From assembly GCA_944384465.1 (NCBI GenBank), contig CALWTK010000004.1, positions 5,257 through 69,256 of the forward strand: a stretch of 64,000 nt of DNA. The letters run 5' to 3'. Shown here one piece after another: positions 40,645 through 56,069 of this stretch; within the stretch, counting starts at the first letter, position 1; the number at the start of each line of letters is the position of its first letter. Below the pieces are notes generated by a model. That model was not told the DNA's origin, made no database searches, and saw nothing but the letters and a program-made list of their open reading frames with translations. The translations under genes and the position numbers were made by a program. This DNA comes from an uncultured Clostridia bacterium (GTDB lineage: Bacteria > Bacillota > Clostridia > Christensenellales > UBA1242).

Positions 40645-41499
40645 ATGGATAAAATAATATTTAAGGATGAATATCACGAAGGTTTTGCTTGTGTACAGTT
40701 AGATGACGGGAAATGGACATTTGTTGACAGCAACGGGAAATTGCAAGCAGGAAGATATAAAGCGGCAGGTGATTATTACGAAGGTTTTGCTGCTGTACGG
40801 TTAGATGACGGCAAAGTGGCATATATCGACAGCAACGGGAAATTGCAAGCAGGAAGATATAAAGCGGCAGGTGATTATTACGAAGGTTTTGCTCATGTAC
40901 AGTTAGATGACGAGAAATGGGCATTTGTAGACCGCAATGGAAAACTGCAAGCAGGAAGATATAAAGAGGCAGGTGATTATTACGAAGGTTTTGCTGCTGT
41001 ACAGTTAGCTGACGGGAAATGGACATTTGTTGACAGCAACGGGAAATTGCAAGAAGGAAGATATAAAGCGGCAGGGTTATATCACGAAGGTTTTGCTTGT
41101 GTACAGTTAGATGACGGGTTAGAAGCAAAGGTTGACTATGTTGGCAATTTAGCTATGTCAAAAGAAGAATTGAAAAGACTTGTTTCAAAAAATCCTAAAT
41201 ATTACAAACTTATTCCTACAAAATATTTTGAAGATAAAAATTTTATAAAAGAAATAAATGATATTATGAAAAGTGTCTTATCCGAATACATTGAAGGAAT
41301 TCAAGCAGATCCAAGAGCTATAGATAAAAGCGAAGATGAATTAGAAGAACTTGTTAAATTTGTAAATGAAATTATGGACATGGTTAATGCAAAAAATACA
41401 CAAGTGAGAAAACAATTGGAAATTAAACAGCAAAAACTCGAAAAATTAAATAAAATAAAAGAAGATATATTAAGTGAAATTAATACATTAGGAGAATGA
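40645..41499 (+). CDS. WG-repeat (KWG-type) protein with a C-terminal coiled coil
   Basis: About five 34-aa repeats EGFA.VQLDDGKW.FVDSNGKLQAGRYKAAGDYY. The ATG at 40645 lies 6 nt after GGAG; the track ORF starts at 40633. Confidence 0.8.
   Translation: MDKIIFKDEYHEGFACVQLDDGKWTFVDSNGKLQAGRYKAAGDYYEGFAAVRLDDGKVAYIDSNGKLQAGRYKAAGDYYEGFAHVQLDDEKWAFVDRNGKLQAGRYKEAGDYYEGFAAVQLADGKWTFVDSNGKLQEGRYKAAGLYHEGFACVQLDDGLEAKVDYVGNLAMSKEELKRLVSKNPKYYKLIPTKYFEDKNFIKEINDIMKSVLSEYIEGIQADPRAIDKSEDELEELVKFVNEIMDMVNAKNTQVRKQLEIKQQKLEKLNKIKEDILSEINTLGE
40678..41118 (+). repeat. In-frame tandem repeat, 102-bp unit x 4.3, inside the WG-repeat gene
   Basis: Units start at 40678, 40780, 40882, 40984 and 41086. Long stretches are identical between units. 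Confidence 0.9.
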
Positions 41500-50946: not shown

Positions 50947-50975
50947 AAAAAATGCTCAGTTGTTTTGAGCATTTT
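50947..50975 (-). terminator. Terminator downstream of the desulfoferrodoxin gene (bidirectional shape)
   Basis: Stem ATGCTCA/TGAGCAT extended by A/T pairs, with a 7-nt loop and flanking A- and T-runs. Confidence 0.55.
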
Positions 50976-51076: not shown

Positions 51077-51454
51077 TTATTTAGCCCACATTGAGTGTAG
51101 ATTGCAGTAAGCAAAAACTTCAATCGGATTTTCGCCTTCAAGCAAATTGAATTTTGCTTTTGGCTCATCTCCTGACTTTAACACACGCACATAATAGCCA
51201 AGGTCGGTCAAAAGTACGATGTTTGTGATGAGGTGTTCTTTTGTCATTGGGTGCAATACTGCTCCAACCGTCACTTCAAGGATATTTTCATTTCTTTCAA
51301 CCACTGGAACATGTTTTTCTTGCGCTGCGTCAGTCTTATTAGGGCGAATTTCGTCCATCGGTTCACCACAACATACTACAGGCACTTTACTGTCTACCAT
51401 TTTGATTACTACATTGCCACAATGACGGCATCTATAAAATTTTATCTGTTTCAT
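51077..51454 (-). CDS. dfx: Desulfoferrodoxin (superoxide reductase, 2Fe type)
   Basis: N-terminal desulforedoxin domain CRHCGNVV...VVCCGEPM. C-terminal centre II residues (EKHVPV, HPMTKEH, YCNLHSMW). The ATG at 51454 follows GGAGAG. Confidence 0.9.
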   Translation of the reverse strand: MKQIKFYRCRHCGNVVIKMVDSKVPVVCCGEPMDEIRPNKTDAAQEKHVPVVERNENILEVTVGAVLHPMTKEHLITNIVLLTDLGYYVRVLKSGDEPKAKFNLLEGENPIEVFAYCNLHSMWAK

Positions 51455-51989
51455 ATTCTCTCCTTTCATTCTTTTCATTTAAAAGTCTTCTAATTTCACT
51501 TATAATGTTTTGCTCAGGAATTGTCAATCTTCTATTTTGCTCTAAATAATCCAAAATAATAATAGTATCTTTATTTGTCTTTTCTCGCCTTTCACTAGGT
51601 AGAGATTTGCTATCAATTATATTCGCCAATCTATCTGCCAGTTTGATCACCAGCGCATATTCGCTCATGGCGTACATCTTTTTAGCCAAATATTCTGCCT
51701 TGCCCACTAGATGTGGCATATATGAAGCGGATGTGACTTCCATAACCATGCTGGCAACCATCTCTCCGAAGTTGTCTACCAGTTCCCTGTATGAAGTGTA
51801 TGTATCTTCTAGAGTGTCGTGCAACAATGCTGCAGCAAGAATGGCGTCAATATTTTTAGATGGCTTATATTTCTTTACAATCTCTGCCACCAAAATTGGA
51901 TGATTGATATACGGAGTTTCCCCATCTGCACGAAATTGTCCTTCATGCTTCTTTTTGGCAAACTCTAAAACTTCATCATAATCTATCAT
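51432..51989 (-). CDS. HD-domain protein of the RelA/SpoT hydrolase type (small alarmone hydrolase-like)
   Basis: KKHEGQFRADGETPYINHPILVAEIV and ALLHDTLEDT motifs. The ATG at 51989 follows GGAGCG. Overlaps the dfx start by 23 nt. Confidence 0.7.
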   Translation of the reverse strand: MIDYDEVLEFAKKKHEGQFRADGETPYINHPILVAEIVKKYKPSKNIDAILAAALLHDTLEDTYTSYRELVDNFGEMVASMVMEVTSASYMPHLVGKAEYLAKKMYAMSEYALVIKLADRLANIIDSKSLPSERREKTNKDTIIILDYLEQNRRLTIPEQNIISEIRRLLNEKNERREYETDKIL

Positions 51990-52086
51990 ACTACGCTCCA
52001 AAATTTTCCCAAAACAATGAGGAAATTTTATTCCGTATAGTTAATCCGTATATTTTTCGTTTTAGATACAATTTATACGATACTAC

Positions 52087-52435
52087 CCTTTCTGTCCACG
52101 GTGTGTCTCCATATCTTCTCGTCGCAACTCTCCCTCTTACTTAATTGCTTTCGCAATTTTCGCTTTTGGTCGGTCGCTCCTTTTTCCCATACTTGCTTCG
52201 CTCATATGGGTCCCTTTTCGTTGTTGAAGATATTGTGCTTAGCCTTTCTGTCCTCGGGATTGTCTGTCCATATCTTCTCGTCGCAACTCTCCCTCTTACT
52301 CAATTGCTTTCGCAATCTTCGCTTTTGGTCGGTCGCTCCTTTTCCCATACTTGCTTCGCTCATATGGGTCCCTTTTCGTTGTTGAAGATATGGTGCTTAG
52401 CCTTTCTGTCCACGGGATTGTCTGTCCATATCTTC
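52087..52435 (-). repeat. Tandem repeat, 156/158-bp unit x 2.2. On the minus strand it is an inverted homologue of the module array at 54.5-55.0 kb
   Basis: Units at 52087-52242, 52243-52400 and 52401-52435 are about 95% identical. See findings for the alignment to 54651-54753. Confidence 0.9.
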
Positions 52436-52657
52436 AACAACGATGTCGAAAATTTCGCCTAAAGTTGAACAGTATTTCAACACATCCCATGGTTCGTTTG
52501 TATGGAAATGGATTTTGATTAACTCACTATCCCCCACAGCAATCAAACAGTCCCCTTTGAAATTTTTAGTAAAATAATCCCTGATTTTATCTTCATCTAG
52601 CCCTTTACCTTCAATCAAAAGTTGAGTGTCATATCTATATTCAATCATTTTTTCCAT
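52397..52657 (-). pseudogene. Internal fragment of a DAK2/FakA (YloV-like) gene
   Basis: The 86-aa ORF matches only the middle region of FakA/YloV (GDCLIAVGDSELIKIHFHTNEPWDVLKY...DIVVEDMDRQ). It lacks the DhaL N-terminal domain and the C-terminal domain, has no spaced RBS, and its 3' end runs into the tandem repeat. Confidence 0.65.
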
Positions 52658-52851
52658 CCTTTCAAAATTTGATGTATATATTATGAAATAAATGTAAAAA
52701 AAAGTAAAGCAATTTTCATAAATTTCATTTTATGCTCTTAAATTGCGAATATAAATAACTTTAACCAACAAAAAATATTAAAAATTTTGTCTACAATTGT
52801 TGAACGTGAATTAAGTTAAATTTACCGCACAAATTAGTCGTGGAGAGTATT

Positions 52852-53541
52852 ATGAAAAAATTTAAAATCTTTGTTTTCAGTCTATCTTTAGTGCTAATTA
52901 CCTCCTTGTGTGTAGCTTTGATCAATCCAAATGTAACATCCTATGCAGTAGATACTATGGATGAAGTCTGCCTTACAATTAGTGGCACTCATTCTACGAC
53001 TATCAAAGCTGACACCGCTGAGGTCCATGCTGTTGTTGAATCTGTCGGGCAGGATGCGTCTACGGTAAAAGAGGATATATTTTCTCAATTTGAGCACATC
53101 AAAAATGTCCTAATTGATGTAGGCGCAGACGAACACAAAACAAATATCACTTATTTCAACATAAATGCAAATCAAAACTGCTCGGTCTCTAGCAATTCAA
53201 TTAGTTATTGTGCGGTTTTGAATTATTCATTTACAACCAATGACATGGATAATCTTGATTCTGTGCTGAATTCACTTTTAGATAACGGAACTAAATCAAT
53301 CAGTTATATAAACTTTTCATCCACAAAATCCTATGAAACATATCAACAATCATTAAATCAAGCATTGAATATCGCTACTGAAAATGCAAAAAATATCCTT
53401 GGAAAGAACAATATACAAATCTATAAAATAAAAGAAAAGAGTTGTTATTATTCGCCCGTGCAGTACAGAAATTATGCTGATATAAGCAATATTAATCAAG
53501 ACATTGAGATTACTGCTAGTGTAGAAATTGTCTGTAGCTAA
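52852..53541 (+). CDS. SIMPL/DUF541-like secreted protein
   Basis: Signal peptide MKKFKIFVFSLSLVLITSLCVA. TISGTHSTTIKADTAEVHAVVES resembles the SIMPL family start. The ATG at 52852 follows GGAGAG. Confidence 0.5.
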   Translation: MKKFKIFVFSLSLVLITSLCVALINPNVTSYAVDTMDEVCLTISGTHSTTIKADTAEVHAVVESVGQDASTVKEDIFSQFEHIKNVLIDVGADEHKTNITYFNINANQNCSVSSNSISYCAVLNYSFTTNDMDNLDSVLNSLLDNGTKSISYINFSSTKSYETYQQSLNQALNIATENAKNILGKNNIQIYKIKEKSCYYSPVQYRNYADISNINQDIEITASVEIVCS

Positions 53542-53621
53542 AATATAAGTATGATAAAATTAAGAATAAATACGACCTAATAAGAAGATATACATTAAAT
53601 ATAACTTTAGATATAACTATC

Positions 53622-54359
53622 CTATTTTTCAATGGATTTGATAATGTTGATAGTGTTCATCGTGTTTGGAAAGCCAATGTACGGAAGACATTGCAACATA
53701 GTGGCAATCAAAACTTCCTTCGTATTCCCTACCTTTAAATTTCCTAAAACATGTGCCTTAATTTGAGAGTCAGACCTAATTGTCGTGAGAATAACCAAAA
53801 CTAGCAATTCTCGTGTCTTTATGTCTAACCCTTTTCGTGTATAAAAATCTCCAAATCCAAATTCAGTCAAATATTTTGATATTTCAGGAACATCTGTATA
53901 TTTGTCCTTTATCTCATCGCCGTATAAAGGATATTGTATATCATGCCCCGCTTTGAATCTAGTTGTTTCATTTACCGTACCCATATTTTCAAGTGGTAAT
54001 TTAATTCCCCTTGCTTTGAATACATCATTCATTGTCCCTGCCGCATTTAACGTCTTTGGAAAACCTATAAATGGTGCCAACTGATACATCGCTTCTCTAA
54101 TTTAAATTGGAGTCGCTCCCACTTGCAACGCCCCGTTGATATGTGCGGATAATTGTGGCAATGTCTGCATGGTCGCAAGAGCGGTAATCGTTATCAATTC
54201 GCGAGTCTTAAAATCAATTGCTTCACTGCTATGGAAAACATCCCCAAATATAAATCTTCTCAAAATCTCCATTAGTTCATGATCTGTCTCATTTTCAGCT
54301 TTTGGAAGTTCTCCAAATAATTTATTATAAACTTCTTTACTTAATTCAAATCTATCCAT
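53622..54359 (-). pseudogene. Two-domain carboxymuconolactone decarboxylase (AhpD-like) gene with one in-frame TAA
   Basis: ORFs 54102..54359 and 53622..54089 are in the same frame. Reading through the stop gives ...GALQVGATPI*IREAMYQLAPFIGFPK, a continuous CMD motif. The stop codon lies at 54102-54104. Confidence 0.75.
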
Positions 54360-54475
54360 ATCTTTCTCCTATATCATATATAATATCATAAATATATTTA
54401 CTTTATCTAATATTTTTATATAGATTTATTATAAGTATTTTTTTATTAATTTTCATATTTTTATAACACCGATTT

Positions 54476-55004
54476 CTTGCAAGGACTTGTTCGAAGTGGG
54501 ACTTAACGGGGTCCCCATGAAACGCATGTCGAAATGGGGTTACATTCGGGGTCCCCATAAGCACTGGTGCGCAATGGGGCTAATGTGGGCAGTTTCCCAT
54601 AAATAAAGTTTTGCGACTAGCAAAACGATAAAAAGCGATGAAAAAAGTATAGGAGTCCCACAAGTGCCCAAAGGGTACGAAGTGGGAAGAGGAGCAACAG
54701 ATCAAAAAGGCAATAATTGCGCAAGCAATTTGCCAAAAGATCAAGTTGCGACGAGGGTCCCCACGAGAACTTGTTCGCAGTGGGGAATAAAAAACGAACG
54801 CTTGTTAATGACACTTTTGCGATTATGTAAGTAATCGCTGCGTCAAAAAAGCGTGTCTCAAAAAGGGCTCCCACAAGCACTCTTGCGTAGTGGGATAAAA
54901 AAATGACCGCTTGTAAACGCCACTGTTACATTTTTTCATTGTGGTGAACTAATAATGCTTCTCCATATAAATGGGGTCCCCATTAGCACTTGTGCGCAAT
55001 GGGG
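54476..55004 (+). repeat. Array of seven ~32-nt covarying hairpin elements (period 103-110 nt), each followed by its own hairpin; candidate modular ncRNA
   Basis: Elements: ~54476-54501 (truncated), 54508-54539, 54548-54579, 54651-54687, 54754-54785, 54864-54895 and 54973-55004. There is no credible ORF, and the region is GC-richer than neighbouring spacers. Confidence 0.75.
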
Positions 55005-55007
55005 AAT

Positions 55008-55087
55008 AAAAAAACGAACGCCCATAAATCTTACTATTGCAGTTTTATATCTAAAACTGCGGTAAGTAACGGGCGATTCGTTTTTTT
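55008..55087. terminator. Extended ~30-bp hairpin flanked by A7 and T7; bidirectional terminator abutting the tRNA-Leu 3' end
   Basis: A7+CGAACGCCC (55008-55023) pairs with GGGCGATTCG+T7 (55071-55087). Inner helices are CTTAC/GTAAG and GCAGTTTTA/TAAAACTGC with loop TATC. Confidence 0.7.
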
Positions 55088-55171
55088 GGTGCGGATAACA
55101 GGACTTGAACCTGCACGAGTTGCCCCACTAGAACCTGAATCTAGCGCGTCTGCCATTCCGCCATATCCGCA
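55087..55171 (-). tRNA. tRNA-Leu (anticodon CAG), type II with long variable arm, CCA encoded
   Basis: The minus strand reads TGCGGATATGGCGGAATGGCAGACGCGCTAGATTCAGGTTCTAGTGGGGCAACTCGTGCAGGTTCAAGTCCTGTTATCCGCACCA. The anticodon stem is CTAGA/TCTAG with loop TTCAGGT. Confidence 0.9.
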
Positions 55172-55210
55172 TATTTAGTCTCTTTATGACTAAACATTTT
55201 CTCGTATGAA

Positions 55211-55239
55211 ATTGTACAAAATTTTATTCATTATGTCAA
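55211..55239 (-). promoter_or_regulatory. Near-consensus sigma-A promoter for tRNA-Leu
   Basis: On the minus strand: TTGACA (55239-55234), a 17-nt spacer ending in TG, and TACAAT (55216-55211). Confidence 0.6.
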
Positions 55240-55262
55240 TAACATATTTACTCTAATAAAAT

Positions 55263-56069
55263 TTATTTAAATCCTAAGGTTAGTTCTACGGGTAAATGGT
55301 CGCTAAATGGTAGGTTTAAAATATAACATTCCTTGATTTCGTAATTGTGTTTATTGTATAGCAAGGCATAATCTATCCTATACTTCCATGCGTTATAGTG
55401 ATTTTCGGGTAAAGTCTCCTGCCTTGAGCGATAACTTCTCCAAGTGTATTCTCTTTTCTCTGGATAAAGGGTACGAAATGTATCTACATATCCTAGAGAT
55501 AATATCTTTTTAAAAGCAGCACGCTCAATAGGAAGAAAGACAGATTTATTTTTACATTCGTTAGGGTGAGTCAAATCAATTTCGTCGTTGGCTATGTTGA
55601 AATCTCCCACACATACGACAGAATATTGAGATTTTAGTGTATTCAAATAGTCGGTCAGTTTTTCTAAAAATCTCATTTTGAAGTCTAGTCTAGAATTTCC
55701 GTTCGGGATGTATGCATTGACGACTGCCAAATTTCCATAAAAAACTGTCATCACCCTGCCTTCATTGTCTATTGGTAAATCACCTATGCCGTATGTGACC
55801 TTGTCCGGGTTGATTTTAGATAAAATCATGGTGCCTGCATATCCCGGGATTTGTCCACAATTATAGAATTTATAAAACGGATAACTTGTTTTCTCTTCAT
55901 TAAAAAGTGAAACCTGTTCATCGTCAGCAAAAATCTCACGAGTGATCTTTTCATTCGCTCGTGTCTCCTGCAGACAAAACACATCTACATCACTTGAAAT
56001 TATCCAATCGAGTAGACCAAGTTTTGTGCTCGCCCTTATTCCGTTTATGTTATAAGAAATGATTTTCAT
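55263..56069 (-). CDS. xth: Exodeoxyribonuclease III
   Basis: MKIISYNINGIRAS..., CLQETR and the C-terminal SDHLPV are EEP-family Xth motifs. The ATG at 56069 is preferred over the TTG at 56090. Confidence 0.88.
   Translation of the reverse strand: MKIISYNINGIRASTKLGLLDWIISSDVDVFCLQETRANEKITREIFADDEQVSLFNEEKTSYPFYKFYNCGQIPGYAGTMILSKINPDKVTYGIGDLPIDNEGRVMTVFYGNLAVVNAYIPNGNSRLDFKMRFLEKLTDYLNTLKSQYSVVCVGDFNIANDEIDLTHPNECKNKSVFLPIERAAFKKILSLGYVDTFRTLYPEKREYTWRSYRSRQETLPENHYNAWKYRIDYALLYNKHNYEIKECYILNLPFSDHLPVELTLGFK

Follow-up and report, generated by a model that had tools for sequence, protein, structure and literature searches.

A probable two-unit array of a small structured element behind a FakA-like mini-gene in Candidatus Onthoplasma

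The locus and its tandem array

The window analyzed here is a stretch of 64,000 nucleotides from contig C4 of the 1.07-Mb draft genome (35% G+C, 32 contigs) of an uncultured clostridial bacterium of the genus Candidatus (Ca.) Onthoplasma. It harbors a tandem repeat at 52087-52435, located between a mini-gene for a FakA-like middle domain (fakA-M) and the genes of an HD-domain phosphohydrolase and a desulfoferrodoxin (dfx), all of which are read from the minus strand. With a probability of roughly 0.7 the repeat represents a two-unit array of a small element of ~105 nt, denoted E, lying on one strand only. E is composed of a hairpin, P1, and a 66-nt module, M, which ends with GACG and one further nucleotide. 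It is positioned on the sense strand right after the stop codon of the mini-gene and before the HD-desulfoferrodoxin genes. Every unit of the array also holds a copy of the last 39 nt of the open reading frame (ORF) 52397-52657, i.e. EDMDRQSRGQKG and the stop codon, denoted X, as well as a short inverted copy of the insertion target, denoted a′. The parts are listed below along the minus strand, followed by the paralogous copy on the plus strand; their boundary positions carry an uncertainty of about ±1-2 nt from chance matches. Scores refer to the covariance model R1, which was built from 8 copies and comprises 71 positions and 13 pairs.

52397..52657, minus strand: FakA-like middle-domain mini-gene, 86 aa (Pfam PF21645), target gene of the insertion
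52397..52435, minus strand: X1, native last 39 nt of the mini-gene (EDMDRQSRGQKG followed by TAA), inside the Pfam match up to residue 82
52426..52443, minus strand: target junction T (codons IVVEDM), made up of the 8-nt flank a and the first 10 nt of X; 5′ arm of an 18-bp stem with a′1, as the exact reverse complement of 52376-52393
52376..52393, minus strand: a′1, inverted copy of target positions −8 to +10, directly 5′ of the proximal P1
52344..52372, minus strand: P1 hairpin of the proximal unit (GGGACCCATATG..CAAGTATGGG), from the fold
52278..52343, minus strand: M module of the proximal unit, ending with GTTGCGACG+A (R1, 84.8 bits, E-value 3e-14)
52239..52277, minus strand: X2, direct copy of X1 with 1 mismatch (0.97 identity), beginning 1 nt past GACG
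52218..52235, minus strand: a′2, inverted copy of the target in the distal unit, one mismatch (CAATATC...)
52186..52214, minus strand: P1 hairpin of the distal unit, from the fold
52119..52185, minus strand: M module of the distal unit (R1, 87.2 bits, E-value 1e-14)
52083..52118, minus strand: X3, decayed direct copy of X with an internal deletion of ~3-4 nt, found at the same place in the X′ (downstream X copy) of the sister species
51432..51989, minus strand: HD-domain phosphohydrolase gene, downstream on the same strand (Pfam HD_4, E-value 4e-18)
51077..51478, minus strand: desulfoferrodoxin gene (Pfam), last of the unit
54652..54754, plus strand: paralogous copy of the family (module R3), P1 at 54652-54687 and M at 54688-54754 (R1, 93.9 bits)

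The tandem repeat is confirmed. Tandem Repeats Finder reports it with a period of 158, 2.2 copies, 94% matches, 2% indels and a score of 628. Units 1 and 2 share 149 identical positions across 156/158 nt and differ at 9 positions, indels among them, while the third piece of 35 nt equals the start of unit 2 at 34 positions. The two a′-P1-M blocks are ~4 substitutions and one indel apart over roughly 120 nt, and their M modules share 96% identity, compared with 91% to the M module of the sister species. Copies of X bracket each unit head to tail, as tandem expansion would leave them. The perfect 18-bp inverted repeat between 52376-52393 and 52426-52443, which had been noted in the first-pass annotation of this DNA, is present at exactly these coordinates, and so is the proposed spacing of about 100 nt to the HD-dfx genes: the last base of the repeat at 52087 is located 98 nt from the ATG at 51989.

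Two other readings of the repeat were rejected. The three ORFs within it (52101-52385 and 52145-52462 on the plus strand, 52202-52363 on the minus strand) gave no match in a Pfam search, which argues against a protein-coding repeat. A CRISPR-like array is incompatible with the irregular spacing and with the conservation of what would be the spacers.

The homology to a module at 54.65 kb in inverted orientation, likewise proposed earlier, is borne out by pairwise alignment. The reverse complement of a unit yields a local score of 50 against 54683-54756, compared with a mean of 17.6, a standard deviation of 2.7 and a maximum of 30 in 1000 shuffles. By blastn against the whole 1.07-Mb genome the unit matches this module with 74% identity over 73 nt (E-value 6e-6), and the two are aligned end to end by MAFFT. 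The hairpin CCCATA/TATGGG, the closing helix GCGAC/GTTGC with its one G-U pair and the apical ATTGC-GAAA-GCAAT are all found, and they fold on the minus strand. The RNA of the array on this strand folds with −104.6 kcal/mol (z = −9.6), P1 and M adopting the pairings of the model, versus −90.1 kcal/mol (z = −5.9) for the plus strand; together with the excess of G-U over A-C pairs described below, this identifies the minus strand as the structured (sense) strand. In the minus-strand minimum-free-energy fold, a′ has two alternative pairing partners, the ORF end and the following X.

Structure and distribution of the element family

Copies of E share the motif AGGAGCRAC…ATTGCG-loop-GCAAT…GTTGCGACG+N. 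The genome of the window contains 17-18 of them as judged by blastn and R1, and the 24 other Ca. Onthoplasma genomes sampled, which like all genomes compared in this study are metagenome-assembled drafts, contain 2-23 R1 matches each. The genus includes Ca. Onthoplasma faecigallinarum DVMB01 (G016), the metagenome-assembled genome (MAG) PUUB17 and KY236-132, the last of which has been assigned to Christensenellales, f__UBA1242, g__Onthoplasma, a lineage with reduced genomes (2025 paper, PMC12306168). Outside the genus, 1-5 copies each are present in 13 of the 57 other genera of f__UBA1242. Of the 16 other families of the order that were sampled, 15 gave no R1 match and the sixteenth a single marginal one (E-value 0.008). 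When the genomes of all species were scanned with the exact pattern, matches were confined to MAGs of Onthoplasma or Clostridia, apart from the small number expected by chance. E belongs to a family that is spread through Ca. Onthoplasma, gut bacteria with reduced genomes, and parts of the GTDB family f__UBA1242.

Covariation was analyzed for 103 distinct copies from 27 genomes. Standard pairs occupy 96.7% of the pair cells, as compared to 77% in column shuffles and 27-44% with slid partners, the latter being the fairer yardstick for an alignment that was fitted to the model. Changes on both sides are seen at 13 of 13 pairs, and the 267 compensatory cells were reached by none of 500 shuffles. 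Since G-U pairs outnumber A-C appositions in the sense orientation (27 vs 10), the structure is read on one strand, which for the tandem units is the minus strand. The P1 hairpin directly precedes M in 92% of 120 copies and is variable in sequence, with a median energy of −12.75 kcal/mol versus −5.6 kcal/mol in shuffles. The unpaired segments AGGA at the 5′ side and GACG at the 3′ side are at least 90% conserved. Rfam contains no match for E at gathering thresholds and, tRNA and chance hits aside, none up to an E-value of 10 over 51900-55300; a known RNA family was rejected on the basis of these negative searches of either region. No description of the family was found in the literature searched.

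Related arrangements occur elsewhere. A five-unit tandem array with a period of 101 bp at C11:9724-10191 is built from units that begin with a P1-like hairpin (GGGCTCCCACGAG…CGTGGGA) followed by a cargo different from M, namely a GGAGAAA…TTTCTCC hairpin; P1 is therefore common to several module types. At loci of three species (L003/L018, L010 and L020), E abuts a conserved leader, TTAGGTGGTACCACGA…, which is succeeded by a terminator-like hairpin upstream of a gene and may be a candidate cis-regulatory RNA.

The insertion signature

In 56 of 122 copies, E is accompanied by a direct repeat of 18-110 nt, the downstream copy X′ of which begins 1 nt past GACG. A perfect a′ block with a median length of 12 nt, complementary to the target at approximately −8 to +5, is found in 33 of these 56 (shuffle p ≤ 0.01), and most of the remaining signature copies are multi-unit arrays that exceed the search window. 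The block sits just 5′ of P1, mostly 26-50 nt upstream of the start of M and further away in five cases with multiple units or hairpins. Its edges are sharp: only 16% of the six flanking positions on each side can form Watson-Crick pairs, and there is no excess of G-U, which is about as frequent as A-C. A slowly evolved RNA helix between a and a′ was rejected on these grounds.

The same signature recurs across species at unrelated targets, comprising 3′ ends of protein genes, tRNAs and, putatively, 5S rRNA:

3′ end of fakA-M
3′ end of a pyruvate-phosphate-dikinase-like ("ppdK-like") gene, named by eye from its C-terminal peptide
anticodon arm of tRNA-Arg, reverse-complemented
D arm of tRNA-Leu, reverse-complemented
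T arms of sense tRNAs, through to the terminator
putative 3′ end of 5S rRNA, read by eye

Where E lies upstream of an intact sense tRNA, position +1 of the tRNA is found exactly 1 nt past GACG in 14 of 19 cases. As judged from the sequences, X′ and a′ together constitute the general insertion signature of the family. No known mobile element among the systems compared combines a direct with an inverted target copy in this way. Inspection of ~12 junctions by eye revealed no microhomology between the 3′ end of M and the target, and a hairpin inside X that could prime a snap-back reaction is not supported at the fakA and tRNA-Arg targets.

Several tRNA loci deserve separate description. At L136 (G103:C11) whole tRNA-Leu genes are duplicated on both sides of an E copy; therefore the target duplication of E can copy complete tRNA genes. 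One genome, G006, contains two E-tRNA-Leu loci (Leu-cag and Leu-tag; L080/L083), the M modules of which are 97% identical. At C27:3346-3526, E is followed by two tandem tRNA-Ile(GAT)-like copies with an aberrant T arm, which are not called by ARAGORN. A further tRNA-Ile(GAT)-like sequence behind E at L005:341-470 is not called either and has an insertion in its anticodon loop, possibly an intron or a further insert.

The target gene and its operon

The mini-gene encodes a complete FakA-like_M domain (PF21645), residues 6-82 matching positions 1-78/80 of the profile (E-value 6e-19). Orthologues of 83-91 aa with 75-99% identity are intact in 36 of 61 genomes of the genus, while a separate full-length FakA of ~550 aa is present in nearly every genus genome sampled. 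The median pN of 0.08 versus a saturated pS of ~0.8 corresponds to a dN/dS of about 0.05, and the comparison with the sister species shows 29 nucleotide differences and 0 amino-acid differences. The first-pass annotation had described this ORF as a fakA remnant. On the sequence evidence given here it is instead a conserved gene under purifying selection.

The only terminator-like site is located at 50949-50975 after the desulfoferrodoxin gene, with none inside the array, and because of this the mini-gene, the array and the HD and dfx genes are probably transcribed as one unit.

Two features of the window lie apart from this operon. On the minus strand at 53622-54359 a gene of the carboxymuconolactone-decarboxylase (CMD) family is interrupted by an in-frame stop near 54090-54101, leaving two ORFs that both match PF02627. 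A 102-bp repeat with 4.4 copies and 87% identity at 40668-41118 is unrelated to E.

Orthologous loci and the history of the array

On the gene strand, the orthologous loci of related species are arranged in the order X, spacer, a′, linker, P1, M, X′ and HD gene. X extends from GAAGATATGG to the stop codon (~39 nt), the spacer between X and a′ measures 2-40 nt and the linker between a′ and P1 3-6 nt; a′ is the reverse complement of the IVVEDM codons and X′ a direct copy of X, stop codon included. Unit counts were taken across 30 orthologous loci, and the copy number varies among relatives between 0, 1, 1.5 and 2 units:

One unit, 8 species: L028, L031, L033, L036, L047, L051, L053, L055
Two or 1.5 units: window, L052, L054, L056, L029, L045
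No unit, 5 species, stop codon of the ORF abutting or overlapping the HD start: L030, L032, L034, L035, L046

This comparison, which the first-pass annotation had proposed, thus finds two-unit arrays recurring at the same locus. Element-free junctions such as TAAATATG are seen in L032, L034, L035 and L046. In L047 and L055 the stop-ATG junction to HD is preserved in its original form by X′, and the GAAAGG ribosome-binding site of HD lies within X. Since X carries the last codons and the stop, and elsewhere the HD ribosome-binding site as well, an insertion leaves both genes intact and is tolerated. X′ resembles the X of its own species (median 0.95) more closely than that of other species (0.76-0.78), and a′ tracks species-specific synonymous codons (GTT, GTC, GTA, GTG).

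The annotation had further held that the repeat absorbed gene sequence. Its observation that each unit contains a copied gene end plus an inverted piece of it stands. The idea of a capture peculiar to the array does not, as X′ and a′ also flank single-copy elements in other species and at unrelated targets. The X-E-X′ arrangement is older than the tandem expansion. One unit is taken as ancestral because the deletion in X3 sits where the single X′ of the sister species has one; the common ancestor with Ca. O. faecigallinarum would already have possessed one unit with a decayed distal X. The second unit could then have arisen if X1 and X3 underwent unequal exchange or slippage in the ~11 initial bases that they have in common, converting the locus to X1-E-X2-E-X3. 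Such an exchange would yield exactly this order and would therefore explain the 2.2 copies, and it appears to be the simplest route to the second unit. Alternatively, E may have inserted twice at the native junction; the array of L054 combines two different E variants, so repeated insertion or an exchange between alleles also happens.

A distinct observation was made at L045 (G059) and L049 (G041), where the ORF is followed downstream by a second fragment of the mini-gene 3′ end that differs in codon usage. These fragments show an identity of 0.89-0.92 to the sequence of other species as opposed to 0.66-0.68 to their own genome, and the pattern suggests exchange between strains or species at the fakA-M locus.

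Empty and filled sites at tRNA-Leu genes

The window contains an empty site upstream of tRNA-Leu(cag) (55087-55170, with flank 55171-55205), at which Ca. O. faecigallinarum (L002) carries an insert of 195 bp. The insert consists of X (32 nt), a spacer (44 nt), a′ (12 nt), a linker, P1 and M, and its spacer exhibits a TATAAT-like box facing the tRNA. The reverse situation is found at tRNA-Leu(tag). In the genome of the window (C21:6204-6635) this site is filled, with the insertion after position 28 of the tRNA and with a leader-type E abutting a 28-nt 5′ fragment of the tRNA, followed by an inverted E with two extra hairpins and then by the intact tRNA. In the sister species (L112) the tRNA is uninterrupted and directly follows an E1 ending with GACG+N. 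The Leu(tag) and Leu(cag) inserts have a spacer in common, and their M modules are 96% identical. Two positions distinguish their a′ blocks, and these are exactly the ones that distinguish the two tRNAs. From the sequences, recent mobility is the best reading of these reciprocally empty and filled sites, with gains favored over precise losses.

Comparison with known systems

E was compared with several classes of repeats and mobile elements, each of which it resembles in part. With repetitive extragenic palindromic (REP) sequences, the bacterial interspersed mosaic elements (BIMEs) built from them and their REP-associated tyrosine transposases (RAYTs), E shares the nature of a short, hairpin-forming, mostly intergenic multi-copy sequence that forms mosaic clusters, lies in operons and near stable-RNA genes and is structured on one strand. 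In contrast to REPs, which are imperfect palindromes of 20-40 nt with more than 100 copies, E measures ~105 nt, has two structured domains and reaches ~17 M copies; it inserts with a long direct duplication and an inverted target copy, both absent in REPs, and its occurrence is uncorrelated with the Y1 transposase gene. BOX, RUP and Correia-type repeats as well as miniature inverted-repeat transposable elements (MITEs) are likewise non-autonomous, modular and structured, are co-transcribed with their neighbors and vary in copy number. MITEs, however, possess terminal inverted repeats and a short target duplication of fixed length. E has neither: it begins with GGG… (P1) and ends with …GACG+N, without a terminal inverted repeat, and its duplication, unlike that of all these repeats, varies between 18 and 110 nt and starts from a nucleotide-precise end of the element. 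E resembles REP, BOX or MITE-type repeats and yet lacks the defining traits of each.

Group I and group II introns offer a parallel to the segment at the 5′ side that is complementary to the target across the insertion point, and to the precise 3′ end joined to +1. That a′ complements the target from −8 to +5 in 33 of 56 insertions is what would be expected of a group I guide, although this is a resemblance only: E is ~105 nt long, lacks a catalytic core (P3-P9) and has no Rfam intron match. It also differs from introns in leaving the host ORF intact upstream, with the duplicated X placed between the target and the guide-like block. As for self-cleaving ribozymes, E shows a nucleotide-precise 3′ boundary, and no known ribozyme motif was matched in Rfam. 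Integrative elements of tRNA genes, with the att sites of their tyrosine integrases, are similar in that direct repeats of part of the tRNA flank the insert, one intact tRNA is kept and the junctions often fall in or beside the anticodon arm or the T arm. The inserts of E, by comparison, span merely 160-270 bp, contain neither an ORF nor an integrase, occur at many unrelated targets including 3′ ends of protein genes and carry the additional inverted target block. The likeness to intron guide pairing and to these integrative elements is confined to single features.

Template-switch products, i.e. those of quasi-palindrome correction and tandem-inversion duplications, also combine a direct duplication with a short inverted segment, and they provide a known replication mechanism by which inverted repeats are kept perfect. 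Such products are sporadic, whereas the geometry of E (−8, +1, GACG+N) is the same in dozens of independent events that involve the same foreign element.

A search for a mobilizing enzyme was negative for the profiles that were compared with E, namely those of reverse transcriptase and Y1 transposase. Reverse transcriptase (PF00078) was detected in 5 of 25 genomes of the genus, while E is present in 25 of 25, and none is encoded at the fakA-M locus. Retroelements (SINE-like elements, group II introns, retrons) and diversity-generating retroelements (DGRs) were rejected on this basis. A DGR is in addition at odds with X copies of only 39 nt, the differences among which consist of a T/A change and a deletion. 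The IS200-type Y1 transposase (PF01797) occurs in 18 of 81 genomes of the family, in 3 of the 15 non-Onthoplasma genomes that carry E, and is absent from the two other Onthoplasma genomes sampled. A REP/RAYT system and an IS200-related palindrome-associated transposable element (PATE) were rejected given this lack of correlation with E. The genome of the window itself contains one reverse-transcriptase ORF of 346 aa and one ORF for an IS200-type Y1 transposase (C19:1444-2055, C8:41024-41380); most relatives are without either.

Mechanism and alternative explanations

E is probably a selfish, non-autonomous element that is moved by host replication and repair through a single-stranded intermediate, and no locus-specific regulator. 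The insertion chemistry, the route to the second unit and the selective neutrality of E are inferred; its structure, distribution and insertion signature, the conservation of the mini-gene, the variation in copy number and the reciprocal tRNA-Leu sites are observed directly. The geometry is fixed: the 3′ end of E is joined to target position +1 on the strand of the element, P1 is connected through 3-6 nt to a copy of the opposite strand whose end lies at about −8, and a variable length of the target is copied again. A host-driven process specific for a single strand would fit this best, and two versions of it are in agreement with the data. In one of them, replicative template switching would take place at the fork and a′ would be a primer-sized piece of the opposite nascent strand. 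In the other, a guide-like a′ would pair with the target, the 3′-OH of the element would be joined at +1 and displacement synthesis would copy X anew. Quasi-palindrome correction is a known template-switch process and could keep a′ matched to the gene without selection.

Several points weigh against this interpretation. To our knowledge, no nameable transposition chemistry would lead one to expect a direct duplication of long and variable extent along with an inverted copy of a short piece of the target, and, as described above, the mobilizing enzyme was not found among the two profiles compared. The conserved unpaired AGGA and GACG segments and the exact abutment to tRNA +1 could reflect a host function, for instance that of an RNA-processing element, and the co-variation of a′ with synonymous changes could result from selection for an RNA helix instead of mechanistic copying. 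Between distant species, elements at the fakA site show no greater similarity than elements from different sites do, and for this reason a single origin and repeated insertion at the fakA site cannot be separated. Each empty tRNA-Leu site could also have been created by precise loss, through recombination between X and X′ in the empty lineage; gains are the preferred reading of these sites. Finally, the copy number and the transcription of the array are deduced from assembled sequence.

A bolder proposal assigns the guide to E itself. E would then represent a new class of protein-free insertion elements driven by host enzymes and inserting via RNA or single-stranded DNA: its 3′ end (GACG+N) would be generated by RNase P-type processing of E-tRNA precursors, a′ would pair with the target on both sides of the insertion point, much as group I introns use their internal guide sequence, the 3′-OH would be joined to +1 and repair synthesis starting at the freed end of the target would copy X again. 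This is tentative and on balance unlikely. The sharp ~12-nt block complementary to −8 to +5 directly 5′ of a hairpin and the strand-specific structure would suit such an element, and so would the nucleotide-fixed 3′ boundary that equals +1 of intact sense tRNAs in 14 of 19 cases and the lack of correlation of transposase and reverse transcriptase with E. The nearly identical Leu(tag) and Leu(cag) inserts, with their common spacer and with a′ blocks differing only where the tRNAs differ, speak in the same direction. A heritable guide, on the other hand, would need a re-targeting mechanism, as closely related E copies carry entirely unlike a′ blocks when their sites differ. A reaction at the RNA level sits awkwardly with the antisense orientation of half of the tRNA targets relative to E, and the conversion of RNA to DNA without reverse transcriptase is unproven for E. 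Moreover, E is far smaller than any known self-splicing intron, no catalytic motif was recognized in it and the Rfam search was negative, and leader-type copies upstream of tRNAs that were seen by eye as selected examples (e.g. L024, L112) have no a′.

Somewhat less likely still is that the array acts as a functional cis-acting RNA of the mini-gene-HD-desulfoferrodoxin transcript, in processing, stability or as a translation-coupled switch in which a′ would pair with either the ORF end (18 bp) or the next X (10 bp) and terminating ribosomes would shift the fold and thereby downstream expression. REP-like elements modulate the stability of operon mRNAs, E lies on the sense strand inside an apparent operon in an array without terminator, its structure is strongly conserved, and the alternative pairings do appear in the minimum-free-energy fold. 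Five species nevertheless dispense with E in the same operon, the genes directly abutting, and the copy number at the locus ranges from 0 to 2; E and its signature also occur at unrelated loci and in both orientations relative to tRNAs, and the sharp edges of a′ without G-U excess are unlike a slowly selected RNA helix. The first-pass annotation, which saw here a local tandem repeat with homology to the 54.65-kb module that took up the 3′ end of a fakA fragment in decay, is partly supported, in that the homology and the gene-derived sequence in the units are real. As an overall explanation it is very improbable in view of the purifying selection on the ORF and of the gene-derived flanks around single-copy elements in other species and at other targets. 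Least probable of all is an expansion of one unit to 2.2 copies by the assembler. The draft is indeed split into 32 contigs, and the family breaks contigs elsewhere in it. Since the units differ at 9 positions, including indels, and two-unit arrays recur in independent assemblies of other species, such an artifact is hardly to be expected; in addition, the distal X has the deletion of the sister species and the middle X does not.

Implications

What was annotated as a fakA fragment encodes a conserved protein made up of the FakA middle domain alone, whose gene is linked to those of an HD hydrolase and a desulfoferrodoxin, and an annotation trap is thereby corrected. If E did constitute a guide-bearing class, it would be able to insert beside genes, tRNAs and rRNAs without breaking them and would sometimes duplicate whole tRNA genes. 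Small structured repeats are common in bacteria, and with its precise 3′ end, fixed geometry, empty and filled sites and host genomes of ~1 Mb, the E family is an unusually legible record that makes the insertion of non-autonomous structured repeats directly testable. It shows a route to harmless insertion, in which gene ends and ribosome-binding sites are re-created, as well as a route to the duplication of tRNA genes.

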